Positions 132 through 16,079 of a stretch of DNA of 64,000 bases are shown here, in pieces (positions within the stretch are counted from its first letter, which is position 1; every line of letters begins with the position of its first letter). A program made the translations under genes and the position numbers. Under the pieces are notes generated by a model. The model was given only the letters and a program-made list of their open reading frames with translations, ran no database searches and was not told the origin of the DNA. Source of the stretch: Spirochaetaceae bacterium (lineage in GTDB: Bacteria; Spirochaetota; Spirochaetia; DSM-27196; SLST01); assembly GCA_007118855.1 (NCBI GenBank), contig SKQU01000026.1:4505-68504 (forward strand), written 5' to 3'.

Positions 132-659
132 TCAAGGTCTCCAGCCCTGTTCCGGTCCGGCGGAAGCGAGCCAGCTTCGGTAGCGCGACAGCTCTTCAAG
201 GAAGTTCGGCGTGTAGATCTCGCGTGGGTGTCCGCCTATCTCGGCGATCGACCAGAACCGCCCCTCGGTGATCTCGGTCGGGTCCACCTGCACCGGGCCG
301 TCCCAGAGGGCGCGAAACGTGGCGACCATTTCCGACTCGTACTCGTTGCGGTGCAGATACCGGTAGAGCGGGTCGATCCGTGCGCCGTCTATCCCCAGCT
401 CTTCCCGCATCTCGCGTCTGGCCGCCTGCTCATAGGTTTCGCCGGTGTCAACGTGTCCGCCCACCGAGGTGTCCCACCGGTTGGGCTGGACGTCCTTCTC
501 CGGTGAGCGCAGCTGCAGGAAGAGCTCGCCGAGCGAGTTGAACACGAGCACATGGGCCACGCGATGGATGAGCTGCGGGTTGCCGTGAACCTGCGCGCGA
601 AGCGCGCACCCGACCACCTCGTCGGCTTCGTTCACCACGTCGAAGACTTCTGCGCTCAT
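132..659 (-). CDS. Nudix hydrolase
   Basis: 175-aa ORF with a complete Nudix box GHVDTGETYEQAARREMREELGI (Gx5Ex7REUxEExGU). Its ATG at 659 overlaps the TGA of the upstream gene (ATGA). Confidence 0.8.
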   Translation of the reverse strand: MSAEVFDVVNEADEVVGCALRAQVHGNPQLIHRVAHVLVFNSLGELFLQLRSPEKDVQPNRWDTSVGGHVDTGETYEQAARREMREELGIDGARIDPLYRYLHRNEYESEMVATFRALWDGPVQVDPTEITEGRFWSIAEIGGHPREIYTPNFLEELSRYRSWLASAGPEQGWRP

Positions 660-1813
660 GGGCCCGTCTGGCGCCCTCCCATCGTGAGCGCGTGGATCGT
701 TCCCTGCAGTTCGCGTATCTGCTGCTTCTGCGCCGAGATCAGGCGGATGAACTCCTCCGCCGTGGCCTCGTCCGGATTCTCGTCGAGACGCGTGCCCGGG
801 TGCGGGTTGATCGACCCGTAGTCGTCTTCGGCCTCAATGGTTGCGAGCGCGAAACTGTCCTCGTACTCGTCGAGATCGAGCGGCATCTCCGGAAAGCGTT
901 CGGAGTGGATTATCTTCTGCGCGATCCGGTCGATCTCCTTCAGGATCAGGGAGTCCCGCCCCACGAGCGCGAGCGGTACCGTATCGCTCACCGCCTCCCG
1001 GACGATGTGGTCGTAGTAGAGGAACCCGAGGCAGCTCGGCTCGAGCTGCAGGCGCTCTTCTATCAGCGTCCGCAGGCTCTGGACGATCTCCATGTCCTCC
1101 GGATGATCCGCCATGCTGACGATGATGCTCGGGCGCAGTTGGCTGATCCGGTCGCGAGCGAGCTTCGCGGCACGCTTGCTGATCTTCTCGATGCCTTCGA
1201 CGATCTGCGCGATGCTCGGCGTGGCGTTCGGCTGTCGCTCCTTCACGATGTCCGACAGGAATCGGCTGACACCCTTCTGGTCCGAGAAGGTCTGCTGCAG
1301 GAGCCGGAAGACGGCGTTCTTGAGGAACCCGTAGGCATTCAGGATCGACGGGGTCTGCGGCGTCGTCACCATGAGTCCCGAGTTCGAGATCAGGAAGAAG
1401 TCGAGGGTGTTGAAGTGGCTGCCTGACCCGAGGTCGAGCAGGATGTAGTCGGCATCGAGCTTCTCGATATTCGTGATGATGCTTCGCTTCTGCGCATGAG
1501 AGAGGTTCGCCGCTGCGGCGACCAGTACGTCCCCGGGAATGAACTCGAGGTTGGGGTACGGTGAGCGTACGCGCACATCGTTGAAGCTCACCGAGCGGTC
1601 GGAGAGGAAGTTCCCGATCCCGCGATGGCGGTTCTTCACGCCGAGGTAGGTGTGCAGATTCGACGCGCCGAGGTCGAGATCGATCACCACGGTGCGCTGA
1701 CCGAAGGAAGCGAGCGATATCCCGAGGTTGGCGACGAGCACGCTCTTGCCCACGCCGCCCTTTCCCGATGCGACCGGCAGAATCTTTCGCCGAAGGTCTT
1801 CGTTGATGATCAT
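656..1813 (-). CDS. MinD/ParA-family P-loop ATPase (FlhG/YlxH-like) with an acidic, coiled-coil C-terminal tail
   Basis: 385 aa. Deviant Walker A near the N-terminus (VASGKGGVGKSV) followed by VVIDLDLGASNLH. C-terminal EEFIRLISAQKQQIRELQGTI segment. ATG at 1813 preceded by AGGGGAG. Confidence 0.8.
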   Translation of the reverse strand: MIINEDLRRKILPVASGKGGVGKSVLVANLGISLASFGQRTVVIDLDLGASNLHTYLGVKNRHRGIGNFLSDRSVSFNDVRVRSPYPNLEFIPGDVLVAAAANLSHAQKRSIITNIEKLDADYILLDLGSGSHFNTLDFFLISNSGLMVTTPQTPSILNAYGFLKNAVFRLLQQTFSDQKGVSRFLSDIVKERQPNATPSIAQIVEGIEKISKRAAKLARDRISQLRPSIIVSMADHPEDMEIVQSLRTLIEERLQLEPSCLGFLYYDHIVREAVSDTVPLALVGRDSLILKEIDRIAQKIIHSERFPEMPLDLDEYEDSFALATIEAEDDYGSINPHPGTRLDENPDEATAEEFIRLISAQKQQIRELQGTIHALTMGGRQTGP

Positions 1814-1852
1814 GCCGACTCCCCTGATTCGTAGTATAGTCGGTGTAAGAGT

Positions 1853-1881
1853 TTGCGGAAAGGCGCGACTTGCATTATAGT
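1853..1881 (+). promoter_or_regulatory. Candidate sigma70-type promoter for the 859-aa gene (TTGCGG-N17-TATAGT)
   Basis: TTGCGG at 1853-1858 and TATAGT at 1876-1881 with a 17-nt spacer, 21 nt upstream of ATG 1902. GGGGGTGGG Shine-Dalgarno lies in between. Confidence 0.35.
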
Positions 1882-1901
1882 ATCCAGTCAGCGGGGGTGG
1901 G

Positions 1902-4481
1902 ATGCTAGAGATATTCGATCAGAACCCACAGAGTCGCGTGTTTCACGTGGACCGCGAGTGCTACGTGGTCTACCTCGGATCCCACTGGGAAGACTTCAAG
2001 CCGTTCCTGCGACTGGGAACCTCGCCCGAGCTCCCGCCCGAGCTCCCGCCCATCGTATCCACGATCGTCGTTCCGGACGCGCTCACCGGGAACCCGCTGG
2101 ACGAGCCTGCATGCCTCGCCGGCGATGCCACGCCGGATACGCACTATGTGGGTGATCTGGAGACGGTCGAGCACATGAAGAGCTTCGTCGGTCAGCACAC
2201 GATCCCCGTGGAGGCGATCGAAGCGATCGATCACGAGGACGACGACGGCAAGCACGTGCTCGTCTACTACTATAAGGACGGCAATCTGAAGATCAAGTTT
2301 CGCAGGAACGAGATCTTCGACCTCAGACGCCGTGAGAAGCTCGACGGACACTTCATCGCGCGTGCCCAGGATGCCAAAAACGAATATGGACGCGGGCCCT
2401 TCAAGTTCCCCGGCGATGCGTATCAGCTGCCCGGCTTCATCGTGCTGCGCGGCGCCCCCTACCTCGTAGCGCGCGGAGAGCTCGCGGCGCTGCATCTGAC
2501 CGACGACTACTTCTTTGCGCTCTCGGCGGCCGGTATCGACGCGGACAGGGTATCGACGGTGCAGGCCGAGGAGGCGGACGCCGCGCTCATCCGGTTCTTC
2601 AAGCGCAGTCGTACCCGGAACCGGCTGGTGCGCATCTCCTCGCCTCGCGGTGAGCGGGTTCGCCAGGCATCAGATCTCTTTCCGGCCAACTCGTTGCCTC
2701 CGTTGAAGACGATAGTTCTGGAAGGCCATGGCGGCGTCTTTGATTTCCACAAGTTCCGCGTGACGCGGGCGTCGGGACGGTTCGAGGCCTCGCTCGACGG
2801 GCTCGACGGGCCGATCGTGTTCGGGTCCGCCGCAAAGAAGACACGCGACGGTTCGTACGTGGTCGACGCGACCGCCGGGTCACTCCTGTTCGTCCGGTCA
2901 AAGACGAGCCATCCGCTCGTCGAGGGAACGCTCTACCAGTTCGGCGGGGTCCCCACGAACGACGACGCGAGTCGTTTTCTGCCCGAGAAGAACTACCCCT
3001 ACCGTGATCTGCTCTCCCAGGCCGAGAATACGCTGCTTGCGCAGCTCGAATACTTCTTCAACGAGCTGTTCGGCGGCCGCGACACCGCGAAGGTGATCCG
3101 AACGCTGAAGGGGCTCGATCCTGTGAAGGCGATCGGCAGGGACGACGGCTCGATCCACCCGATCGTTGAGGTCGTGCTTCACAACTACAAGGAGTATGCC
3201 CGGTACGTTCGCGACCATGAAGCGGAGGTCGGTCGCGGGGCGGAGGCCCTTCTGGGTCTGCTCGACCGTCACCAGGTTGGCAGGGCGGATGCCCCTGCCA
3301 ACCTGCCTCTTGTGGGTGAGATCTGCCGCGATGGCGAGCGGGAGTACCTCTTCTACCGCCTTGCCGCACGGATCACCGGCGACCGCTACGCTCATGCGGA
3401 ACAGGTTGCCGCGAAGGTTTACGCGCTCCCGGCCGTTGATTTCGCCGCCGAACGTCAGCGTCTGGTGGACCTCATCGCCGGGCTTGCGACGCCGGAGCAG
3501 ATGGACGAGGCTCGGTTGCGCCGGATCGCCGCGGCGGGAAAGAAGAAGGCTGCCGACCGACGCGCGGGCGAGTCCGAGAAGGAAGGCGCGGGCGGTTCAG
3601 AGCAGGATGCTCACGGCCGGGGAGACGGGACGACACCAGCGGGTGCACGGGAGCGGGGCGGGAAAGCCGCACCTCGCGGGAGAGCCGCCGGGGGCCGAGG
3701 CGCGGGCACCCGACGCAGGACCGGACGGCGCAGATGGGTGCTTCCGACCGCGGTGCTGCTCGTCCTGATCGCGGCGCTCCTGGCGCTGCTTCTCACCGGC
3801 ACGATCCCGAGTCCCTGGTTCGATCCCGTGGAGCCGGCGGCGGTGACCGACGACCCCACGGTTCCGATGCCCGACCCGGACGTCGTCGACCCGGACCTGA
3901 GGGACCCGGATGTCGACCCGGATGTGACCGATCCGGACCTGGTAGATCCGGACGCCGTCGTTCCGGACGCCGTCGATCCGGATGTGGAGCCTCGCCTGCC
4001 CGACGGATGGCCCGAGGAGTCTCTCCCGGCGATTCAGGCGCTCGAGCAGACGCCCGGTGTGACGATCACCGAAACCAGCGTGATCGGTCCGGGCGGGATC
4101 GAGATCACCCTGCGTGACATCATTGACCTGGTCAACCGAATCGCGACCGACAACGGGTATGCGCCCATGGGCGTGATTGACCCCGACCGGCCCGACCCTG
4201 ACTGGATCTATCCGGGAAATCTCTTTGTACTCCCGGACGGCACGCGCTACACTGTAGTGCAAGGTGATACGCTGTGGCACATCACCGTTCGGTATATGGT
4301 GGCTCGTTTGCGCAGCGACTACGACCGGTACACCCGTCTCGTCGCCGAGTACGAAGATGAAGCAACCGGTGAAGCGCGTCGGACCGAGATCGTTGAGTTA
4401 CTGGCGGCGCTCGGTGCTGCTTCGCACACCGAGAATTTCACCCGACTGGTCGAGGAGACCCTTGATCGCTGGGAAGAATAG
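1902..4481 (+). CDS. Uncharacterised bitopic membrane protein: ~590-aa cytoplasmic region, Arg/Gly-rich linker, one TM helix, D-P-D repeat spacer, C-terminal LysM-like segment
   Basis: 859-aa ORF with ATG plus SD. One hydrophobic helix (WVLPTAVLLVLIAALLALLLTG) preceded by an RRRTGRRR positive-inside cluster. (V/L)xDPD repeats follow. LysM-like strings IYPGNLFVLP and YTVVQGDTLWHITVRY sit near the C-terminus. Confidence 0.7.
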   Translation: MLEIFDQNPQSRVFHVDRECYVVYLGSHWEDFKPFLRLGTSPELPPELPPIVSTIVVPDALTGNPLDEPACLAGDATPDTHYVGDLETVEHMKSFVGQHTIPVEAIEAIDHEDDDGKHVLVYYYKDGNLKIKFRRNEIFDLRRREKLDGHFIARAQDAKNEYGRGPFKFPGDAYQLPGFIVLRGAPYLVARGELAALHLTDDYFFALSAAGIDADRVSTVQAEEADAALIRFFKRSRTRNRLVRISSPRGERVRQASDLFPANSLPPLKTIVLEGHGGVFDFHKFRVTRASGRFEASLDGLDGPIVFGSAAKKTRDGSYVVDATAGSLLFVRSKTSHPLVEGTLYQFGGVPTNDDASRFLPEKNYPYRDLLSQAENTLLAQLEYFFNELFGGRDTAKVIRTLKGLDPVKAIGRDDGSIHPIVEVVLHNYKEYARYVRDHEAEVGRGAEALLGLLDRHQVGRADAPANLPLVGEICRDGEREYLFYRLAARITGDRYAHAEQVAAKVYALPAVDFAAERQRLVDLIAGLATPEQMDEARLRRIAAAGKKKAADRRAGESEKEGAGGSEQDAHGRGDGTTPAGARERGGKAAPRGRAAGGRGAGTRRRTGRRRWVLPTAVLLVLIAALLALLLTGTIPSPWFDPVEPAAVTDDPTVPMPDPDVVDPDLRDPDVDPDVTDPDLVDPDAVVPDAVDPDVEPRLPDGWPEESLPAIQALEQTPGVTITETSVIGPGGIEITLRDIIDLVNRIATDNGYAPMGVIDPDRPDPDWIYPGNLFVLPDGTRYTVVQGDTLWHITVRYMVARLRSDYDRYTRLVAEYEDEATGEARRTEIVELLAALGAASHTENFTRLVEETLDRWEE
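3867..3992 (+). repeat. In-frame degenerate Asp-Pro-Asp repeat tract (MPDPDVVDPDLRDPDVDPDVTDPDLVDPDAVVPDAVDPDVEP)
   Basis: Reiterated gacccggac / gatccggat units in the DNA, immediately after the TM helix of the 859-aa protein. Confidence 0.8.
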
Positions 4482-4507
4482 ACCGAAGGAGGAGAGAAGG
4501 GTTTTAG

Positions 4508-4535
4508 TTGTTAACGCTGGAAAGTGTATTATACT
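4508..4535 (+). promoter_or_regulatory. Candidate promoter for the cfpA-like gene (TTGTTA-N16-TATACT)
   Basis: AT-rich patch in the 125-bp intergenic region. TTGTTA at 4508-4513 and TATACT at 4530-4535. Confidence 0.35.
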
Positions 4536-4557
4536 TAGGCCGGGGAGAACGAGAGCC

Positions 4558-4581
4558 GGGCAGAGCGTAGTGCTTCTGCCC
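4558..4581 (+). promoter_or_regulatory. 5' leader stem-loop upstream of the cfpA-like gene
   Basis: GGGCAGA(GC)gtagt(GC)tTCTGCCC gives 7+2 bp with one bulge. It lies between the candidate -10 and the AGGAAGGAG SD. No U-tract follows, so it is not a canonical terminator. Confidence 0.35.
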
Positions 4582-4606
4582 AAAACCACCACAGGAAGGA
4601 GTTAGT

Positions 4607-6583
4607 ATGTCCGATATCCCAAGGAGTCCAAACGTATTTCACCCTCGCAAGCCGTCAGCTGTTGGGTCACGCAACAGTCTGGCCCAGGAAGGGCGAAGCC
4701 AGAAGGACGAGTACAAGCAGGTCATCGCTGAAGAGGTGGAGAACATCCTCAAGGACATCCAGGTCAAGCTGCCGAACGAAGTGCTCGAGCAGCTCGACGT
4801 CATGGGTGGACTGAAGGAGAAGATCTACAACTACTACAACCAGAATTACCAGAACATGTTCAACCGGTACATCGTGACCGCTGAAGATGAGATGGTGAAG
4901 AAGGTTCGTAACTTCATCGACAAGGAAGAGTCGAAGGCCCTCGCGCGGTATTCTCCCAAGGAGATCGCCGAGATGCTCGACCAGATCGGTGGGGCGGACA
5001 AGTTCAACACCGGCGAGATCGAGAAGTCGATGGTCAACATGTACGGCCATCTCCAGGGGCACATCCAGCGAGGGATGAACGATCTCGAGAACGACACCAA
5101 CGCGCTGCTGCGGCAGAAGGCCGACGTCGGTGCCTTCATTCGCGGCGAGAACGCCTATTCGATCGTGAAATGCGCGTTCAAGGACAACCTCCACAAGCCG
5201 AAGAACGTCAGCGACGTGAAGCTCTCGGTGAACATTCTCGACTCCGAGCTCATAAGCCCGATCTTCCAGTACCAGGTGACCGTGGAGTTCCTGATCAAGG
5301 ACCAGATCGCCAAGACGATTACGACGCTGATCGAGCAGGAAGTCGAGCGCTACCAGGACGAGCTCGTTGACGAGGGCAAGGACGAGCTGACCGACAGCGA
5401 GATGATTTTCGAGAAGATCAAGCGGGTTCCGAACTACACCGACGACGATGCGGAGGACGAGAGCTCGAAGCGCTACACCTTCATGGCGAAGGAACTCGTC
5501 GAGAAGATCGAGGGGCTTCGCGCGGAGATCGATCCCAAGGAGTTCGATCCGCTCAACATCCGGGAGAACATCAAGAAGATCATCGACGCGGAGAACATTC
5601 GCAACCGCGGGTTCAACACGGCGATCAACTCGCTGACCTCAATTCTTGACACGTCGAAGATGGGCTATCAGTACATCGAGAACCTGAAGAACGCCCGCGA
5701 GCTCATCGTACGAGAGTACGAGGACACGGACGTCAACAACCTGCCGGACGAACGTTACCAGATGCGCCTGAAGTACTACGACCAGGAGCAGCTGCTGAAG
5801 GAGCGCGACGCGTACGACAAGCAGATGGAAGCGTTCAAGAACGAGATCACGCATGCGTGGGACGTCGTTCGCGCTCTCTACGACAGCAACAAGAGCGGCA
5901 TGCGGGTCAACGACTTCGACGACGTTGCGAAGCGGATGCGCGGTCGGGTTCGGCGTGCAAAGCAGGAGAGCGGAGAGCCGCTGTACGAGGAGATCGAGAA
6001 GACCTGGAACGAGATTCTGCGCATCAAGGCGGAGGAGACCGACGTCGAGCGGCTCAACAACACCTACCTGCACGAGAAGGCTCTGCTGAAGAAGATGCTC
6101 AACCGCTCCCAGGAGACGGTGGCGACGGTATACGGTCATCTCAATCCCAAGGAGCGGGTCGAGGTGGACAAGCGGATCCACTTCCTGCGGCGCGAGTTCG
6201 AGGAGTTCGACTACCTGATCAACCCCTACCATATTCAGCCGGGCCTCATCCTCGACGTGGACATCACCAGCATCAAGCGGAAGAAGTTCACGCTCAACGG
6301 GATGGCGAACGTGCTGAACGAGTTCCTGCACGGTGTCTCCAAGGGCTTCCAGGATGCGGCCTTCGCAACCTTCAAGCGCCGACGCAGCACGGTTCGCGAA
6401 GACCTGAACCAGAGTTTCATGTCCACTGTTGACCAGGAGATCACGGCTCAGGTCCCGGAGGCACAGCACTTCGAGTCGGCAACCGATGACGAGGAGTCGA
6501 GTGATGCCGGAGTGAAGGGCAAGGCTGATGTGACGCCGTCGCGGCGCCGCCGGAAGTCCTCTGACGATCTGCAAGAACTGTAG
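4607..6583 (+). CDS. cfpA: CfpA-like cytoplasmic filament protein (K/E/N-rich, coiled-coil-prone)
   Basis: 658 aa, similar in size to treponemal CfpA as I recall it. Long charged heptad-like stretches. Strongest SD in the window (AGGAAGGAG). Located two genes upstream of ppdK, the order I recall for T. pallidum. No alignment was run. Confidence 0.55.
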
Positions 6584-6586
6584 GGT

Positions 6587-7561
6587 ATGGAAAACACACT
6601 GAATCTTCTGTCGCGCAGGGCCGGTTTCAACACCGCCCTGCGCCACTTCAAGAGCGTCAACGCGTTTGCCGAAGACGTCGGCGAGGGGTACAACCTCGCC
6701 GATGTGCTCAACGAGGCGCTCGAGGACGGGTCGCTTGAGCGATACCAGGTCCGCGCTGTTCTGAACGCGCTCCTGGTCGAGAAGCTCGGTTACGTCACCC
6801 GCGCTCACAATCTCGAGGCCACGATAGACGACGCAGAGCCGATCATTGAAGCCCTTTCGAAGTGGGGGAAGATCCACGTCGTACTGTGCTACTACCATCC
6901 CCAGGCCGGTCTGTACGTCATCAACCCGGCGAACCCGGCGCATTGGGACGGTGTGTTGCCGCTTGTACGGGACGAGTACTTCCTGATGTTGGTGGGTCCG
7001 GCTACCGGGTCCCCGGATCACAGGACGCTTGAACGGGCGGCCGACGACGTTCTGAAGGTGCTCTACGGAAAGAGCGTCAAGGATGATTCCGCCTACCGTG
7101 GCAACCGCCGCGTTCTGAAACCTGCAGCCGATATACCGAGCTTTGACGAGACGCAACCGGCGCGCGCGGTTACATCCGCCGTGACGACGGAGGCTCCTGC
7201 TCAGCCCGCGGCCCAACGCGGCGGCAGCAGAAAACGGATAACCCCCAAGTATTCGGTCGTGGTGACGAACGAGCTCTTCCACAACGGGAACGTGGAGGCC
7301 TGGAAGAAGATCATTGCGAGCTTCCAGGCGAAGTACCCCGGACTCGACGTCCTCATCTGGTACGAGAATGAACGGATCAACGACATCAACTCACTGTTCA
7401 AGTGGGGGAAGGTCAAGCATGGTGTTCCCATCATGTTCAGCGTTGCGGGCGATGAGATCAAGGATGTCCGCAAGCTGCAGCGCTACCTCTACGAGGGGGC
7501 AAGCCCACGATTCGAGGCATTCCTCAAGGGCGGCTACGACCAGGTGCTGGACCTATTCTGA
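6587..7561 (+). CDS. Uncharacterised two-domain protein tightly linked to the cfpA-like gene
   Basis: 324-aa ORF. ATG lies 3 nt after the cfpA-like stop. Balanced composition. Two globular-looking halves joined by an Ala/Pro/Thr/Gln linker (TSAVTTEAPAQPAAQRGG). Confidence 0.7.
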   Translation: MENTLNLLSRRAGFNTALRHFKSVNAFAEDVGEGYNLADVLNEALEDGSLERYQVRAVLNALLVEKLGYVTRAHNLEATIDDAEPIIEALSKWGKIHVVLCYYHPQAGLYVINPANPAHWDGVLPLVRDEYFLMLVGPATGSPDHRTLERAADDVLKVLYGKSVKDDSAYRGNRRVLKPAADIPSFDETQPARAVTSAVTTEAPAQPAAQRGGSRKRITPKYSVVVTNELFHNGNVEAWKKIIASFQAKYPGLDVLIWYENERINDINSLFKWGKVKHGVPIMFSVAGDEIKDVRKLQRYLYEGASPRFEAFLKGGYDQVLDLF

Positions 7562-7620
7562 CGCAGACGATCCGGCGCTCCGGCGCCGCTCGTCGATCGC
7601 TCGCATGATGGAGAGAGGGA

Positions 7621-10278
7621 ATGCAGGAGTATTACTCGTTTAGCAGTACTGAGTATCTCAGTGATCCGGAGATTCTGGAAGCCGTCGGCAGTCGCGGTCG
7701 GCGGATTATGGAGCTTGCATCGCTCGGTGCGCCCATCTCCCCCGGGTTCATCATCACGAACGACACGCTGAACCAGATCGCCGCGGACGAGGCGGGCGTC
7801 TTTGAGATGCTCAAGGATCCGCTCTCGGACATGGAGGCGATCTTTCTCAAAGAGTTCAACAGCAGCTCGAATCCGCTGCTGATCAAGGTCGTGGAGAGTC
7901 CCATGCTCAACATGGTGAACACCTTTTCCACGATTCACAACATCGGGCTGTCAACGCAGACGGTCGATGGCTTCGCGGCGTTCGTGGGCGAACAGTTCGC
8001 CTACCATGAGTTCGGGAACGCGCTCGCGCATATCGCAGAGATGGAGCTTCTGACCGAGGGCGTGCCGGCGCGGCGCAAGACGCAGCTCGAGAAGGCGAGA
8101 AAGGACTTCCACGACGCGGCGGAGAAGGCGGACAGCCGCAAGGCGGTGCTTGCCGCGGTCGACAAGCACGGTGATGTCTTCCCGAGCAAGGTCTTCACCG
8201 ACTGTTACGAACAGTTCCGCTATGTCCTGAAGACATACCACAAGCTCTTCCAGATCAACCAGAGCTCCAGCGATTCTGCAATTCTCGTGCAGACGATGGT
8301 GTTCGGAAACTTCGGGAAGAACAGCCTGTTCGGATACTTCTACACGAGAGACATCATCTCCGGGGAGAGCGGGATCACCGGGGAGTTCTTCGAAGGGTCG
8401 TTCGACGATACCGAGGTCTCCGGGAAGCCGCTTTCGAAGATCGCGAAAGCGGTCAAGACCGAGCTCGACACGATAGGATCGGAGCTCGAGGCGCACTTCC
8501 GGGAGATCCGACGCGTCCGGTTCACGATCGAGCAGGGCAAGTTGTGGGTGATCGACCAGATGGAGGTCATCAACAAGAGCGCTCAGGCGGAGCTGAAGAC
8601 CCTGCTCGATCTGCACAAGAAGAAGGTCATTGACGACAAGTACATCATTGAGACGATCAAGCCGGGTCGTCTGAGCGAGCTGCTGCATCCGGCCCTCGAC
8701 GTTCGATCGGTGAAGGACGCAGGCAGCCAGTCCGGGGGCATCGCCGGCTCGGTCGGCGCGGCGATCGGGCGGGTCTATTTCGACACCGAGGAGCTGATCA
8801 AGGCGTACCGAATGGCCGTGCAGCAGGACGAAGACGCGAACTTCATCCTCGCGATGCCGGCTACCTTCGCCGAGGACGTCAAGGCCATAGAGGTCGCCAC
8901 CGGCGTGCTGTCCAGTGAAGGCGGGTACGCGAGCCATGCACCGGTTGTCGCGCGGAGCCTTGGGAAGGTGGCGCTCGTCAAGCCCGACATCAGCTGGGGC
9001 GACAGGCAGATGAAGATAGGCCGTAAGACGATCAAGCAGGGCGACTACATCACGGTCAACGTACCGTATTACGAGGAGCCTACCGTCTACTACGGACGCG
9101 GCGAGCTGACGAAGCCGAGTCCCGAGGGCAGCGGGCTGCTTGAGTTTCTCGATATCTGTGAAAGACACATCACGCCGGATTTTGACGTGCACTGTAACGG
9201 AGACCAGCCCAAGGACGCGGAGCTCGCGAAGAAGTTCCACGCGCACGGAATAGGTCTCTGCCGAACCGAGCACATGTTCTTCGCGGAGGACCGGATTCTC
9301 AAGTTCCGCACGATGATCATCGCCGGCAACAAGGAGGACCGGGAGAAGGCGCTCGTAGACCTCAAGAAGTTCCAGATCAAGGACTTCTACGAGCTCCTGA
9401 AGATCATGGACGGCATGCCGGTCACGATCCGCCTTCTCGATGCTCCGCTGCATGAGTTCCTTCCGCATACGCGCGAGAGCATGGACGAGTTCGTCAGACA
9501 CTTCCGCAAGCAGTATCCCAAGGTCAGCGAGGCCGAGGTCCGGAATCGGTGCGACCTGCTGAAGGAGTTCAACCCGATGCTCGGCCACCGCGGTATCCGT
9601 GTGGCGATCAGCTACCCGGAGATCTACAACATGCAGGTTGAGGCGATCTTCGAGGCCGCGTACAGGCTCAAGAGCGAGAAGATGAACCCCAGGCCGGAGA
9701 TCATGATTCCGCTCATCATGAGCGCTCACGAGATGAAGACGATCCGCAACGGCAAGCGCATAGAAGGGAAGGCGATCATCGGGATCAAGGAGATAGAGGA
9801 ACGGGTCAAGAAGAAGTTCAAGGCCCGGTCGCTCGACTACAAGGTCGGGACGATGATCGAGCTTCCGGCCGCCGCGCTGAACGCCGACAGTATCGCGCAG
9901 TACGCCGAGTTCTTCAGCTTCGGCACGAACGATCTGACCCAGACGACGAACGGCCTCTCGCGTGACGATTTCAACAGCTTCTTCAGCGACTACAACGAGT
10001 TCGACCTGCTCGAGGCGAATCCGTTCAAAGTGCTCGGGGAACAGGTGAAAGAGCTGATTCGCATTGCGGCCGAACGGGGCCGGCTGACCCGGCCGAGCAT
10101 CTCCATGGGCCTGTGCGGAGAGCACGGTGCGGAGCCTGAGAACATCGCCTACGTTCGAAGCGTCGGTCTGGACTACACCAGTTGCTCGGCATACGGCATC
10201 CCGATAGCCAAGCACGCGGTGGCGAAGATGAACGTCGCAGCCGAAGCCGCTGCCAGGAAGGCCGTCGCCGGCCGCTGA
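7621..10278 (+). CDS. ppdK: Pyruvate, phosphate dikinase
   Basis: 885 aa. Phosphohistidine-domain motif GGYASHAPVVARSLG. PEP-utilising motifs GLCRTEHMFF and FSFGTNDLTQ. SD GGAGAGAGGGA. Confidence 0.95.
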   Translation: MQEYYSFSSTEYLSDPEILEAVGSRGRRIMELASLGAPISPGFIITNDTLNQIAADEAGVFEMLKDPLSDMEAIFLKEFNSSSNPLLIKVVESPMLNMVNTFSTIHNIGLSTQTVDGFAAFVGEQFAYHEFGNALAHIAEMELLTEGVPARRKTQLEKARKDFHDAAEKADSRKAVLAAVDKHGDVFPSKVFTDCYEQFRYVLKTYHKLFQINQSSSDSAILVQTMVFGNFGKNSLFGYFYTRDIISGESGITGEFFEGSFDDTEVSGKPLSKIAKAVKTELDTIGSELEAHFREIRRVRFTIEQGKLWVIDQMEVINKSAQAELKTLLDLHKKKVIDDKYIIETIKPGRLSELLHPALDVRSVKDAGSQSGGIAGSVGAAIGRVYFDTEELIKAYRMAVQQDEDANFILAMPATFAEDVKAIEVATGVLSSEGGYASHAPVVARSLGKVALVKPDISWGDRQMKIGRKTIKQGDYITVNVPYYEEPTVYYGRGELTKPSPEGSGLLEFLDICERHITPDFDVHCNGDQPKDAELAKKFHAHGIGLCRTEHMFFAEDRILKFRTMIIAGNKEDREKALVDLKKFQIKDFYELLKIMDGMPVTIRLLDAPLHEFLPHTRESMDEFVRHFRKQYPKVSEAEVRNRCDLLKEFNPMLGHRGIRVAISYPEIYNMQVEAIFEAAYRLKSEKMNPRPEIMIPLIMSAHEMKTIRNGKRIEGKAIIGIKEIEERVKKKFKARSLDYKVGTMIELPAAALNADSIAQYAEFFSFGTNDLTQTTNGLSRDDFNSFFSDYNEFDLLEANPFKVLGEQVKELIRIAAERGRLTRPSISMGLCGEHGAEPENIAYVRSVGLDYTSCSAYGIPIAKHAVAKMNVAAEAAARKAVAGR

Positions 10279-10280
10279 TC

Positions 10281-10304
10281 CCGCGGCGGTTGGTGCCGCC
10301 GCGG
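10281..10304. terminator. GC-rich hairpin between convergent ppdK and the J-domain gene
   Basis: CCGCGGCGG-ttggtg-CCGCCGCGG, a perfect 9-bp stem with a 6-nt loop starting 3 nt after the ppdK stop. No U-tract. Confidence 0.5.
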
Positions 10305-10323
10305 ATGAACGCCTGAGCCCGGC

Positions 10324-11148
10324 CTATAGTCCGAGCTCAGGCAGACGCTCCGAGATTCCCAGGAGCGCCTGAAACGCGTCCAGCAGACAGAGTTTGACGG
10401 CGGTCTCGGTGACCCAGCTCGAGGTCTTGTAGTTGGTCACCACCGCCATGTACTCGTTGAGGCTCACCGCGAGGCTCTGCGGTGAGGCGAGCTCACCGTG
10501 TGGGGAGAGCTCGTGGCGGAAGAAGGCCCGCCTGATCGCCGCGTCGAGCGCGCGGCTTCCCTCGCGGTAACGACGGTAGGCGCCGTGCTCGTCGCGTGAG
10601 CTCGTCGGCGCAAAGGCGCGGTCGATCTGCATGCACTGGAGAAATGCCCGGGTGAACCCGGTGAAGATCTCAAGGGTTTCGCCGTCGACCGGGTTGGGCA
10701 CACGCAGGCGTTCGAGCTGGGCCAGCGCGTCGGTGATTCGGCGGACCGCCCCGCGGTAGCGGATCCGCGGGGTGCCCGCCCGGCGCTGGTGCGGATTCTC
10801 CAGTCCGTACTGGTAGTAGGTGAACACCCCGTCGAGAACACGATTTGCGATGTTCGAGAACAGCGCGGTGAAATCATCGTGCGCGCGGATCTCCCTGTCC
10901 AGGTGGGCCTGGACCTCTTCGTAGCGCAGCGCGGCGAGGTGCTCGACCGCTACGTCGTACGCTGCGTTTATCTTCACCATTGAGGTATGCGCCCATTCGA
11001 GGCGTTCGGGGTTGTAGTCGGGGTGATAGCGACGAACGAGCCTCCGGTACGAGGTGTTCAGGTCGCGCAGGGACGCCGCAGGGGATATCTTGAAGAGCGC
11101 GAGTGCCTTCTCCGCAGAGACGAAGGCCCGGCCGGAACGCGGCGCCAT
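10324..11148 (-). CDS. J-domain (DnaJ-like) protein with an uncharacterised ~200-aa C-terminal region
   Basis: 274 aa. N-terminal J-domain signature LNTSYRRLVRRYHPDYNP (HPD tripeptide) plus KINAAYDV. Confidence 0.8.
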   Translation of the reverse strand: MAPRSGRAFVSAEKALALFKISPAASLRDLNTSYRRLVRRYHPDYNPERLEWAHTSMVKINAAYDVAVEHLAALRYEEVQAHLDREIRAHDDFTALFSNIANRVLDGVFTYYQYGLENPHQRRAGTPRIRYRGAVRRITDALAQLERLRVPNPVDGETLEIFTGFTRAFLQCMQIDRAFAPTSSRDEHGAYRRYREGSRALDAAIRRAFFRHELSPHGELASPQSLAVSLNEYMAVVTNYKTSSWVTETAVKLCLLDAFQALLGISERLPELGL

Positions 11149-11200
11149 AGCCCGGCAAGTGTAATGATTGCGTCAGACTTCCTCAAGGCGGAAGATGTTT

Positions 11201-11229
11201 TTGACGAAGTCCATGTCGCGACGTATAAT
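11201..11229 (+). promoter_or_regulatory. Near-consensus sigma70 promoter (TTGACG-N17-TATAAT)
   Basis: TTGACG at 11201-11206 and TATAAT at 11224-11229 with an exact 17-nt spacer. GGAGGG SD at 11240-11245 and ATG at 11249. Confidence 0.6.
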
Positions 11230-11248
11230 GGAGTTATTCGGAGGGTAC

Positions 11249-11800
11249 ATGGCGCAGATCAAGGACCTGTTCAAGGCATACATGGCGAGCGAGCTTCCGA
11301 CCGACGGCGGGCTCATCATCACCTCGTTCTTTGACGAGGAGACGACCTATACGAAGTACGAGGTCACCTCCTACAACAACGTCAAGGACATCTACCGCAA
11401 CGAGGAAGGCATCGTCTTCCAGGCCGACGGGTACAAGCAGTTTGTTGTCGTGGAGCCGGCAAGCTACAGCCGCAAACACATGGAACCCGCGATGCGCGAT
11501 CGCGGCCACGCGATCCCGTACCGGTTCAAGGAGGTGGACTCGCTCGTCTCCAAACGGCAGGACAGGATCATGCTGGGCAAGGAACCGGTGATTACGTATA
11601 CCAGTTTCACGATCCTGCAGCCGGTAGGCGAGAACTTCGCCTACGTCGTCTACAAGGAGCCGGACATCCTGCAGACGATCGAGTCGTTCTTCGCGAAGAG
11701 TCTCTGGCAGGATGCGCGTGTGCCCAAGACCGACGCCGAAAAGGTGGCGAAGACGATCGCGCAGAGTCTGCACAAGATACTGAACCCCGCGGAGAATTGA
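11249..11800 (+). CDS. Hypothetical protein (183 aa)
   Basis: The track ORF begins at a TTG (11168). The ATG at 11249 has a proper SD and lies downstream of the consensus promoter. I recognise no motif. Confidence 0.65.
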   Translation: MAQIKDLFKAYMASELPTDGGLIITSFFDEETTYTKYEVTSYNNVKDIYRNEEGIVFQADGYKQFVVVEPASYSRKHMEPAMRDRGHAIPYRFKEVDSLVSKRQDRIMLGKEPVITYTSFTILQPVGENFAYVVYKEPDILQTIESFFAKSLWQDARVPKTDAEKVAKTIAQSLHKILNPAEN

Positions 11801-11872: not shown

Positions 11873-12919
11873 ATGCAAGCACTCGTTCTGACGCGCAACA
11901 CGACGCTCGAGATCCAGGACCTGCCGCTTCCCGAACCAGGCTTCGGGGAAGTTCGGGTCGATGTTCGTGCGGTCGGCATCTGCGGGAGCGACGTCCACGG
12001 CTACGACGGGTCAAGCGGTCGCCGCGTGCCGCCGCTCGTTATGGGGCACGAGGCCTCGGGCGTGATCGGCGCCGTCGGTGCCGGGGTCGATCGGTGGAAG
12101 CCCGGCGATCGGGTTACCTTTGATTCGACCGTGTACCGGCTGGACGACTGGTACTCGCGCCGCGGCCAGTACAACCTGAGCGACGGGCGCGAGGTTCTCG
12201 GGGTCGCCACGGGTGAGTTCTCGCGCGCGGGATGCTTCGCGGAATCCGTCGTAATGCCCGCGCATGTTCTCTACGCCATACCGCACGGCGTCTCGTTCGA
12301 GCATGCTGCGCTCGTCGAGCCGTACGGCGTTGCGATGCACGCGGTCCGGCTCGGTGCGACAGAGCCCGGCATGGTCGCCGTCGTCGTGGGGTGCGGGACG
12401 ATAGGCCTGTGTCTGATCCAGATCCTTGCGGCGGCCGGCATGCGCAGCGTCGTCGCGGTTGATCTGGACGCCGGGCGCCGGGCGCTCGCCCGGGAGACGG
12501 GGGCGACGCACGACATGGACCCGCGGGACGGCGGCGAGGAGGCGGTGGCGCGGCTGTGCGGATCCCTGACCGAGGGACGCGGCGCGGACTACTCCTTCGA
12601 GGCCGTGGGTACCGCGGCGCCGCTCGGCACGGCGATCGCCGCGGTGCGCCGCGGCGGCACCGTGGTGCTCGTGGGGAATCTTGCGCCCGAGGCGGCTATC
12701 CCTCTGCAACGCATCGTGACGCAGCAGATTCGCCTCCAGGGAAGCTGCGCCATCGCCGGCGAGTTCGACCAGGTGCTCGCCCTGCTCGCCGCAGAGAAAC
12801 TCAGACCTGATCTGCTCGTCTCACGGGTCGCCCCACTCTCAGAGGGTCCTCACTGGTTCGAGCGCCTCTACAATGCCGAACCCGGACTGATGAAGGTGAT
12901 TCTGCGGCCCGGCCGGTAG
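11873..12919 (+). CDS. Zinc-dependent medium-chain alcohol/polyol dehydrogenase (sorbitol/threonine DH family)
   Basis: 348 aa. GICGSDVHGY and GHEASGVIGAVG zinc-ligand motifs. GCGTIGL Rossmann motif. Confidence 0.85.
   Translation: MQALVLTRNTTLEIQDLPLPEPGFGEVRVDVRAVGICGSDVHGYDGSSGRRVPPLVMGHEASGVIGAVGAGVDRWKPGDRVTFDSTVYRLDDWYSRRGQYNLSDGREVLGVATGEFSRAGCFAESVVMPAHVLYAIPHGVSFEHAALVEPYGVAMHAVRLGATEPGMVAVVVGCGTIGLCLIQILAAAGMRSVVAVDLDAGRRALARETGATHDMDPRDGGEEAVARLCGSLTEGRGADYSFEAVGTAAPLGTAIAAVRRGGTVVLVGNLAPEAAIPLQRIVTQQIRLQGSCAIAGEFDQVLALLAAEKLRPDLLVSRVAPLSEGPHWFERLYNAEPGLMKVILRPGR

Positions 12920-12950: not shown

Positions 12951-16079
<3,129 letters not shown>

Follow-up and report, generated by a model that had tools for sequence, protein, structure and literature searches.

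To judge by sequence, the locus at 656–11800 of the window, the 64,000-nucleotide stretch of DNA analyzed here, carries a genuine cfpA, the gene for cytoplasmic filament protein A, within a conserved gene cluster. The universal core of this cluster comprises cfpA, the TP0747-family gene p324 and a PPDK-like gene, with p210 usually alongside; one large clade adds p859, a J-protein and a ParA-like ATPase to this core. Taken as a whole, the best explanation, which we consider reasonably probable, is a conserved cfpA cluster whose partner genes act on the filament. CfpA filaments lie immediately below the membrane and run parallel to the flagella (PMC13398306), and Izard 2004, as cited in PMC3398590, describes "bridging and anchoring components" in the ribbon as unidentified. 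The cluster genes would thus offer the first concrete set of candidate factors for anchoring, positioning or regulating this ribbon. The features of the locus are listed in Table 1; the four open reading frames of the first-pass annotation were verified in coordinates and strand.

Table 1. Features of the cfpA locus, in window coordinates
Feature	Position	Strand	Basis
ParA/MinD-superfamily ATPase, 385 aa	656..1813	-	Pfam CbiA, ParA, AAA_31; divergent from p859
p859, bitopic inner-membrane protein, 859 aa	1902..4481	+	Alignment and AF2 model
Sigma-70-like promoter candidate TTGTTA-16-TATACT	4508..4535	+	Consensus match only; in p859–cfpA intergenic patch
Shine-Dalgarno GGAAGGAG, 5 nt upstream of cfpA ATG	4594..4601	+	Anti-SD pairing -8.3 kcal/mol
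cfpA, cytoplasmic filament protein A, 658 aa	4607..6583	+	NF040882 cfpA_ASD equivalog
p324, TP0747-family protein, 324 aa	6587..7561	+	PF27497 = TP_0747_N
PPDK-like protein, 885 aa, TP0746/TDE0844 family	7621..10278	+	Full-length alignment to C. symbiosum PPDK
J-domain protein, 274 aa, convergent with PPDK-like gene	10324..11148	-	Pfam DnaJ 31.9 bits
Sigma-70-like promoter candidate TTGACG-17-TATAAT, 11/12 matches	11201..11229	+	Upstream of p210
p210/p183, conserved uncharacterised protein, 183 aa	11249..11800	+	Linkage and conservation

The proposal that the 658-aa protein is CfpA was borne out by the NCBIfam equivalog NF040882 (cfpA_ASD), which scored 1094.6 bits (cutoff 500) and aligned residues 3–605 with profile positions 1–604 of 605, a full-length match. 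Charged residues are frequent in the protein (E 10.6%, K 8.4%, D 7.9%, N 6.5%), in agreement with its earlier description as K/E/N-rich. PF27473 (CfpA_C) was found in 2778 homologues, and at least 429 GTDB species representatives encode a relative. An AT-rich promoter patch had been ascribed to cfpA alone, and at about 4465–4554 GC does drop as low as 0.38, compared with 0.65 over the whole window; this minimum ranks fourth lowest in the 64 kb, and the patch contains a sigma-70-like candidate. The Shine-Dalgarno (SD) sequence GGAAGGAG is strong, though surpassed within the window: pairing reaches -12 kcal/mol in several other genes, so that the claim of the strongest SD in the window was wrong. 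The 324-aa protein begins, as had been noted, 3 nt past the cfpA stop (6583, then 6587), and no SD was recognisable in its start region; because of this short gap and missing SD, p324 is probably translationally coupled to cfpA.

Conservation of the cluster was surveyed in 80 species-representative genomes, 76 metagenome loci and 1 further contig. The genome loci were the best 80 of at least 429 GTDB species representatives, ranked by score, and the sample is therefore biased towards relatives of the window, whose lineage is high in GC (65%) and lies outside Treponema; the nearest locus, from a soda-lake Spirochaetales MAG, has a CfpA identity of 98%. The main clade comprised 64 loci, and the denominators for each gene count assessable loci only. 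p324 adjoined cfpA in 72 of 74 loci (59/59 in the main clade), and the PPDK-like gene was present in 61 of 63 (51/51 in the main clade). These two genes co-occurred strictly, both being missing from L065 and L067, the only such loci. The core was retained across CfpA-bearing Spirochaetota, down to CfpA identities of 44–65%; the triad of cfpA, p324 and the PPDK-like gene was found in L081, at 44–54% identity, and in Treponema-like loci as well. The flanking genes in the main clade were not kept (Nudix 2/38, ADH 0/38), indicating that the cluster is under selection. Both the similarity to CfpA and the conservation of its neighbours in other spirochaetes, on which the first-pass annotation had staked its proposal of a four-gene module, were checked and found; the gene set itself had to be revised, since the partners found throughout are p324 and the PPDK-like gene, usually with p210, and the J-protein is linked as tightly as p859.

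The triad is recognisable in Treponema. In T. denticola, TDE0842 (cfpA), TDE0843 (hypothetical) and TDE0844 (putative PPDK) were all repressed together in co-culture (PMC3914990). The T. pallidum order TP0748–TP0747–TP0746, given in the first-pass annotation, proved right, to judge by the Pfam name TP_0747_N and the TDE0842–TDE0844 order. These Treponema loci and the window share the same filament protein, by the CfpA equivalog, and a downstream TP0747-family gene, judged via the Pfam name, and TP0746 equals the window PPDK-like protein in length (885 aa). Unlike the Treponema-like loci, the window has p859, the ParA-like gene and the J-protein linked to cfpA.

The gene after p324, two genes downstream of cfpA, had been taken as a ppdK landmark. 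Its position was correct, with a gap of 59 nt from p324; its bystander status was not, as it encodes a degenerate dikinase that travels with p324. The protein aligns full length with C. symbiosum PPDK (478 bits) and has in common with canonical PPDK (PDB 1KBL/1GGO) the three-domain architecture, the catalytic His455 and the PEP/pyruvate-site residues, whereas K22, R92, G101, R135, D321, E323 and R337 are replaced. Across all 61 orthologues, H455, R561, R617, E745, N768, D769 and C831 were invariant, and the phospho-His swivel domain and the PEP/pyruvate TIM barrel site were kept intact. Changes in the ATP-grasp residues were equally consistent (61/61): K22 to R; R92 to V, A, L or I; D321 to R, Q, S and others; E323 to R, K, T or I; and R337 to P, A, E or S, with G101 and R135 replaced in addition. 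Ala or Ser replaces the regulatory Thr453. Constraint is weakest in the N-domain, where the retained fold-defining glycines and a mean pairwise identity of 44% indicate that some of it remains. The TIGR01828 score (655.9) lies under the cutoff of 843.45, and that of Pfam PPDK_N (21.5) under the threshold of 27. From these residues, "ppdK" is a degenerate, atypical dikinase, with ATP-binding residues lost and the His and PEP/pyruvate sites kept.

We consider it unlikely that the PPDK-like protein is an ordinary glycolytic PPDK with a divergent nucleotide site, p324 its metabolic partner or regulator, and the adjacency to cfpA an ancient operon without a filament link. Consistent with that reading, TP0746 is annotated as and assumed to be a glycolytic ATP-forming enzyme and is among the most highly transcribed T. 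pallidum genes (PMC8525777, PMC10013896); the conservation of the N-domain, the co-occurrence of p324 with the PPDK-like gene as strictly as with cfpA, and the cfpA genes standing alone in L065 and L067 point the same way. However, the residues stated to contact ATP have become hydrophobic or oppositely charged in every orthologue, both dikinase models fall short, the 3-nt gap without an SD ties translation of p324 to cfpA rather than to the dikinase, and the triad, unlike the flanking genes, has been kept over very large divergence.

Among the clade-specific genes, p859 lies directly upstream of cfpA in 47 of 48 main-clade loci, and in the reverse search cfpA was directly downstream of a p859-like gene in 43 of 65 metagenome loci. 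The AF2 model (mean pLDDT 76) and alignment define a conserved cytoplasmic region (~10–555) followed by a basic, disordered segment, a single, confidently predicted TM helix (613–632) with a basic RRRTGRRR on its N-terminal side, a hypervariable periplasmic linker that is acidic and Pro/Asp-rich, and a conserved periplasmic domain (705–858) with a partial LysM-like motif, YTVVQGDTLWHI, at 783–798. The bitopic topology ascribed to this protein thus stood, and the LysM assignment proved weaker than had been stated: the match is sub-threshold (14 bits against a cutoff of 20.9, profile positions 1–16 of 43), though seen in 21 of 28 family members. A partial metallo-beta-lactamase-fold match (E 3e-4, TM ~0.35) was obtained, and the HxHxDH motif was absent from every p859 family member searched.

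The ParA-like protein, previously described as a divergent MinD/ParA ATPase, does belong to the ParA/MinD superfamily: it has the deviant Walker A GKGGVGKS and exceeds the Pfam cutoffs for CbiA (59.6 bits), ParA (48.3) and AAA_31 (46.5). MinD equivalog models fell far short (63.8 against 212.9), and every specific equivalog model tried failed. Its C-terminal extension of about 80 aa consists of an acidic stretch and then one short, partly conserved helix. Full-length orthologues lie -4.5 to +9.9 kb from cfpA in 23 of 26 assessable main-clade loci, 11 upstream and divergent and 12 downstream of p210. The J-protein passes the Pfam DnaJ cutoff (27.8) and also matches J-domains in the PDB; it follows the PPDK-like gene in 47 of 48 main-clade loci, and its HPD motif is invariant in 38 orthologues, the rest of the protein being unassigned and poorly conserved. 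For p210, the promoter candidate upstream supports 11249 as the true start, and public databases hold the protein in its 183-aa form. It had no match in Pfam, NCBIfam or the PDB, and was linked in 35 of 42 main-clade loci and in 7 of 10 Treponema-like loci, where it immediately follows the PPDK-like gene on the other strand.

That p859, the ParA-like ATPase and the J-protein merely share a synteny inherited in one clade, with general envelope, division or chaperone roles unrelated to CfpA, appears distinctly unlikely. In 16 Treponema-like loci, none of the three turned up in the 10 kb around cfpA, even by profile search, and the gene upstream of cfpA there encodes a divergent secreted or TM protein; the three therefore cannot be universal requirements for ribbon assembly. 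In addition, p859-family proteins occur at 13 loci without cfpA within 7 kb and with different conserved neighbours, so p859 is not a dedicated CfpA protein, and the ParA-like protein is generic, matching no diagnostic subfamily. Against simple inheritance, the genes just outside the cluster already differ at 90–93% CfpA identity (L002, L003), whereas the cluster persists while p859 and J-protein identities drop to 24%; the ParA-like gene has switched cluster ends and stayed attached, and in L143 the p859-like gene has moved downstream of the PPDK-like gene with linkage kept.

The p324 family is small: only 208 representatives turned up among 1.84e9 proteins, and exhaustive searching with HMMER gave no relatives outside the family. 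Alignment divides p324 into an N-domain (~1–170) and a nearly invariant C-domain (~216–324), joined by a variable Pro/Ala linker; His232 and His278 of the C-domain are invariant. In the AF2 model the C-domain is moderately confident (His232 loop pLDDT <50), with a DSSP topology of beta-alpha-beta-beta-alpha-beta-alpha, as in HPr. HPr made up about 35 of the top 50 Foldseek matches in the PDB (probability 0.75–0.99; TM ~0.6–0.69, HPr-normalised; rmsd ~3 A), all weak (E 0.07–0.3), with no match at E <= 1e-3. The invariant segment TNELFHNGNVEAW sits just before helix 1, the site of His15 in HPr; His232, however, lies about 4 residues ahead of the helix rather than at its N-cap, and the position matching HPr Ser46 varies between S and A. 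A C-domain profile did not recover HPr from the PDB at E <= 10, hhalign against HPr gave P = 0.08 (probability 0.7%), and Pfam returned no match at E <= 10. The predicted C-domain fold thus resembles HPr weakly, and the sequence tests lend this no support.

On this evidence, the least likely of the alternatives, and an improbable one, is that p324 and the PPDK-like protein act as a PEP-dependent phosphotransfer pair, similar to Enzyme I and HPr, that modulates CfpA filaments, the swivel His being autophosphorylated from PEP and passing phosphate to His232 or His278; high TP0746 expression, suggestive of bulk metabolism, also speaks against it. Such a pair would link division and the organisation of the nucleoid to the state of glycolysis. 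Besides the fold matches, its appeal lies in the unbroken association of the two genes and in the features shared with PTS Enzyme I, namely PEP use, a swivelling phospho-His domain and no ATP site in any of the 61 orthologues, with the gene near a domain of predicted HPr-like fold. Unlike Enzyme I, the PPDK-like protein is without the HPr-binding helical subdomain, and in p324, unlike HPr itself, the HPr-like domain shares its polypeptide with an unrelated N-domain of 170 aa. There is a precedent for PPDK homologues becoming kinases with new roles: VadK (M. tuberculosis Rv1127c; PMC13400623) has left the ancestral metabolic role. As its model (NCBIfam NF004531, 534 aa) reads, VadK has the ATP-grasp and His domains without the PEP domain, and the window protein is the opposite case, its PEP site kept and its ATP site degenerate.

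Under the favoured explanation, of partner genes acting on the filament, we infer the roles of tether, positioning, remodelling and phosphotransfer from gene order and domain content. With its own promoter and a strong SD, CfpA would be produced in large amounts and polymerise into a ribbon under the inner membrane, and p324, made in lesser amount by translational coupling, would act on the filament. p859 may act as a tether between ribbon and envelope, contacting the filament through its cytoplasmic domain and the peptidoglycan through its LysM-like domain in the periplasm. The ParA-like ATPase could position or partition the ribbon or the nucleoid, a role in keeping with the defects in division and chromosomes that cfpA mutants show, and the J-protein might bring DnaK for filament remodelling. 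The PPDK-like protein presumably retains the PEP-to-histidine partial reaction without a canonical ATP site, and would thus work non-canonically or pass phosphate or a signal to a partner, p324 being the obvious candidate recipient.

A comparable filament and positioning system is the bactofilin–PadC–ParA system of Myxococcus xanthus (BacNOP/PadC/ParAB), in which a non-tubulin, non-actin polymer is encoded beside a ParA/MinD-type ATPase and adaptors, and whose phenotypes concern chromosome organisation and division, as with the cfpA system. Bactofilin and PadC are not known to be related in sequence to CfpA, p324 or p859.

Against the favoured explanation, the high transcription of TP0746 and its assumed glycolytic role fit housekeeping better than an association with the filament (PMC8525777, PMC10013896).

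The product of the 658-aa gene is CfpA: it scored 1094.6 bits against the NF040882 cfpA_ASD equivalog model (cutoff 500), with residues 3-605 aligned to model positions 1-604 of 605. P0001, a public record identical to the window protein, has the Pfam domain PF27473 (CfpA_C), as do all of the thousands of close CfpA homologues. This identification agrees with the first-pass annotation, as do the four open reading frames it had named, all present as described, the charged composition of CfpA (high in E, K, D and N) and a low-GC patch 5' of the gene, which holds a predicted sigma-70-like promoter match. A good Shine-Dalgarno (SD) sequence precedes cfpA; it had been called the strongest in the window and is not, at -8.3 kcal/mol against -12 in several other genes. 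At the C-terminus (window 6460-6583; CfpA alignment A1), a variable low-complexity tail is followed by a conserved short end peptide, ...G-x-A-x-VTP...DDLQEL, which in Treponema-like CfpA reads ...GGLKEI or GGIREL. This end peptide looks like a possible docking motif for a partner protein.

Conservation of the locus was assessed by scanning the CfpA alignment against one genome per GTDB species, and relatives were present in at least 429 species representatives. The best 80 of these at least 429 were taken as genome loci with 10-kb flanks, a selection biased towards relatives of the window, and the window genes were searched against them by tblastn, counting only loci with sufficient flank. 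Sixty-four loci, with CfpA identities of 65-98%, form a main clade, and 16 are Treponema-like.

Genes of the cfpA locus and its flanks in the window, with their occurrence beside cfpA in the main clade (tblastn)
Gene	Position	Strand	Product	Main-clade occurrence
Nudix hydrolase	132-659		Pfam NUDIX, 74.8 bits	just outside cluster, 2/38 assessable loci
ParA-like ATPase	656-1813	-		inside cluster, 23/26 assessable loci: upstream and divergent (the arrangement in the window) in 11, downstream of p210 in 12
p859	1902-4481	+		directly upstream of cfpA, 47/48 assessable loci
cfpA	4607-6583	+	658 aa
p324	6587-7561	+		59/59 assessable loci
PPDK-like gene (ppdK)	7621-10278	+	885 aa	51/51 assessable loci
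J-domain protein	10324-11148	-		after PPDK-like gene on opposite strand, 47/48 assessable loci
p210	11249-11800	+	183 aa	35/42 assessable loci
Alcohol dehydrogenase	11873-12919	+	348 aa, zinc-type alcohol dehydrogenase-like	just outside cluster, 0/38 assessable loci
GH2-like gene	12951-16049	-	1032 aa, like GH2 beta-galactosidase by eye

The cluster was kept even where p859 and the J-domain protein had dropped to 24% identity, and p324 adjoined cfpA in 72 of 74 loci overall; the only two loci without p324 (L065 and L067) were also missing the PPDK-like gene. Treponema-like loci retained p324 (13/15), the PPDK-like gene (10/12) and p210 (7/10); the other cluster genes were gone, and another, divergently oriented gene stood upstream of cfpA. 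Queries with divergent p859 family members and an N-terminal profile found no p859-like gene in the Treponema-like cfpA loci. The GH2-like, alcohol dehydrogenase-like and Nudix flanks were not conserved beside cfpA elsewhere. Taken together, these results demonstrate that the cfpA locus sits in a selected, conserved cluster with a universal core that is extended in one clade. The four-gene module proposed in the first-pass annotation (cfpA, p859, p324 and the ATPase) stands in that cfpA has conserved neighbours in other spirochaetes. Its composition changes: the universal core is cfpA, p324, the PPDK-like gene and, most often, p210, and excludes the flanking genes. Co-repression of T. denticola TDE0842 (cfpA), TDE0843 (hypothetical) and TDE0844 ('pyruvate phosphate dikinase, putative') on co-culture arrays (PMC3914990) provides independent support for the cluster.

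A distant locus, L081 (GCA_016746295.1, JAEAOA010001653.1, 8001-15467; GC 42%, CfpA identity 44-54%), has the order cfpA, p324, PPDK-like gene and then a second cfpA paralogue. The first three genes are each broken by frameshifts, and the second cfpA is intact (619 aa, 54% identity). The assembly containing this spirochaete-like contig was annotated with spliced gene calls of eukaryote style, and the contig's public gene models falsely fuse cfpA with p324 and the PPDK-like gene with the second cfpA. The 841-aa CfpA-p324 fusion record P0429, a candidate for Rosetta-stone evidence, was rejected as a gene-model artefact of such spliced calls, because the DNA of L081 contains separate, frameshift-broken genes.

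The universal partner p324 belongs to the TP0747 family: P0121, a public record 100% identical to it, has PF27497 (TP_0747_N) as a precomputed hit. The name of this Pfam family bears out the T. pallidum gene order given at first reading, in which TP0747 lies between cfpA and ppdK; no mention of TP0747 by name was found in the literature searched. The start of p324 lies 3 nt past the cfpA stop, as had been read initially, and p324 has no SD of its own; the short gap and the absent SD suggest that p324 is translationally coupled to cfpA. Exhaustive HMMER searching of 1.84 billion representatives recovered a family of only 208 members and no relatives outside it. In family members, a variable Pro/Ala linker joins a conserved N-domain to a near-invariant C-domain, and the AF2 model of p324 has high confidence in the N-domain and moderate confidence in the C-domain.

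In a Foldseek search of the PDB with p324, approximately 35 of the top 50 matches were HPr, with probabilities up to 0.99, TM scores of 0.6-0.69 on HPr and an rmsd of ~3 A, none reaching E <= 1e-3. The modelled C-domain has the beta-alpha-beta-beta-alpha-beta-alpha topology of HPr. Sequence tests gave no support: a Pfam search for HPr homology at E <= 10 was empty, the C-domain profile found no HPr in the PDB, hhalign of the C-domain against seven HPr/NPr/Crh sequences gave P = 0.08, and no sequence-profile relation to PF00381/HPr was established. With these outcomes, the likeness of the C-domain to HPr is taken as a fold-level hint.

The PPDK-like protein aligns end to end with C. symbiosum PPDK, and it falls below the cutoffs of TIGR01828 (655.9 bits, cutoff 843.45) and Pfam PPDK_N (21.5, cutoff 27). 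Across the window protein and 60 orthologues, the phospho-His and PEP/pyruvate-site residues H455, R561, R617, E745, N768, D769 and C831 were invariant (61/61), and the ATP-grasp positions K22, R92, G101, R135, D321, E323 and R337 were replaced, variably, in all 61, Treponema-like proteins included. From the C. symbiosum mutagenesis literature, we take K22, G101, R135, D321 and R337 to be nucleotide- or phosphate-binding sites. The N-domain was the least constrained, with 44% mean pairwise identity versus 63% and 69% in the other two domains. The position of C. symbiosum Thr453, two residues before the catalytic His and, in plants and some bacteria, the target of phosphorylation by the PPDK regulatory protein, was Ala in 52 and Ser in 9 of the 61. 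ATP is bound directly by the counterparts of R92 and E323, whose mutation should abolish activity (PMC5507339). On the residue pattern and the lower N-domain constraint, the family is predicted to keep the Enzyme-I-like half reaction from PEP to histidine, and it has lost the canonical nucleotide site.

This loss is relevant to the reconstructed metabolism of the syphilis agent, in which TP0746 is assumed to make ATP from PEP, AMP and PPi (PMC10013896). A more far-reaching reading would make the cfpA-linked 'PPDK', probably including TP0746 and TDE0844, not a dikinase but an Enzyme-I-like PEP:protein phosphotransferase with the HPr-like domain of p324 as acceptor; the relay would act on CfpA and place filament behaviour, division and nucleoid organisation under the control of the PEP/pyruvate ratio. 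We consider this reading improbable, and the high transcription of TP0746 (PMC8525777) argues that the enzyme still has a bulk role. If the phosphotransferase reading were true, treponemal glycolysis would have to be re-examined at its last step, now accepted as ATP-yielding.

In the alignment and AF2 model of p859, a folded cytoplasmic region leads through a basic disordered segment into a single transmembrane (TM) helix, beyond which a hypervariable acidic linker connects to a folded periplasmic domain, and the charge distribution indicates a predicted N-in, C-out topology. The periplasmic end had been described as LysM-like; LysM (PF01476) scored 14.0 bits against a threshold of 20.9 and covered profile positions 1-16 of 43. 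The domain contains a partial LysM-like motif, short of the complete beta-alpha-alpha-beta LysM unit, with sub-threshold hits in 21 of 28 family members (best E 1.2e-4). A metallo-beta-lactamase fold partially matched the cytoplasmic region (TM score ~0.35), and the HxHxDH metal motif was absent in all 28 family members. Of 65 assessable metagenome loci with p859 homologues, 43 have cfpA as the next gene. Among the other 22, nine match the LysM-like segment only; in 13 the relatives are full-length, the conserved neighbours are different, and cfpA is absent within 7 kb; one locus (L143) has its p859-like gene downstream of the PPDK-like gene instead. Given these relatives away from cfpA, p859 belongs to a wider family, from which one clade has recruited it.

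In the ATPase the deviant Walker A motif is intact (GKGGVGKS, matching KGGxxK[ST]), and the protein's initial placement in the MinD/ParA superfamily is confirmed by Pfam CbiA (59.6, cutoff 25.4), ParA (48.3, cutoff 27.1) and AAA_31 (46.5, cutoff 27). All specific MinD, ParA and FlhG-type models scored below cutoff; for MinD proper, TIGR01968 gave 63.8 against 212.9 and TIGR01969 73.1 against 201.75, with residues ~10-160 alone matching. Its tail is acidic, with a single short helix that is partly conserved. The J-domain protein matches PF00226 (31.9 bits, cutoff 27.8) with an HPD tripeptide invariant in 38 orthologues, and a full DnaJ is excluded (TIGR02349, 29.9 against 377). The true start of p210 is at 11249, and no relatives of known function were found in Pfam, NCBIfam or the PDB.

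CfpA ribbons have been known for decades, and we know of no report identifying their bridging or anchoring components; no names for them were found in the literature searched. Tomography, as relayed from Izard 2004 by PMC3398590, revealed 'bridging and anchoring components' of the ribbon, and T. denticola cfpA mutants have division, chromosome and virulence defects (PMC3398590). The roles proposed here for the cluster proteins fit those components and the sub-membrane position of the ribbon. The universal partner p324 would be an accessory protein associated with the filament and produced by translational coupling, and the PPDK-like protein, which always accompanies it, would either be a non-canonical enzyme or donate phosphate to p324. 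Three proteins are specific to one clade. The domain make-up of p859 suits a trans-envelope anchor, and it may serve as one; that of the ATPase suits a positioning ATPase, and it may be a positioning or partitioning factor; that of the J-protein suits a chaperone adaptor, and it may recruit DnaK to remodel the filaments. A single-gene story thereby becomes a defined, conserved set of directly testable candidates, and TDE0843, the p324 counterpart, is present in a genetically tractable species.

Scans of the whole window (1-64000) for tRNA genes and, at gathering thresholds, for Rfam families were empty, hence no riboswitch or sRNA in its intergenic regions at those thresholds. PADLOC defence models gave no meaningful match, and the window proteins are nameless in their public sequence clusters. 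In the Treponema-like loci L061-L080, the divergent gene lies ~150-1600 nt upstream of cfpA on the minus strand; by eye, its product has a signal peptide, a C-terminal TM helix and a D-x-S-x-S sequence like a vWA MIDAS motif, and a DHH-type phosphoesterase-like gene comes after it. A p859-like out-group (L125:4127-10161; also L123, L128, L130, L145 and L148) has its own conserved neighbourhood, with no cfpA within 7 kb: upstream and divergent is a gene for a ~810-aa membrane protein with a BNR-repeat-like domain, and the 3' end of the p859-like gene is overlapped by a gene for a conserved 193-aa protein.
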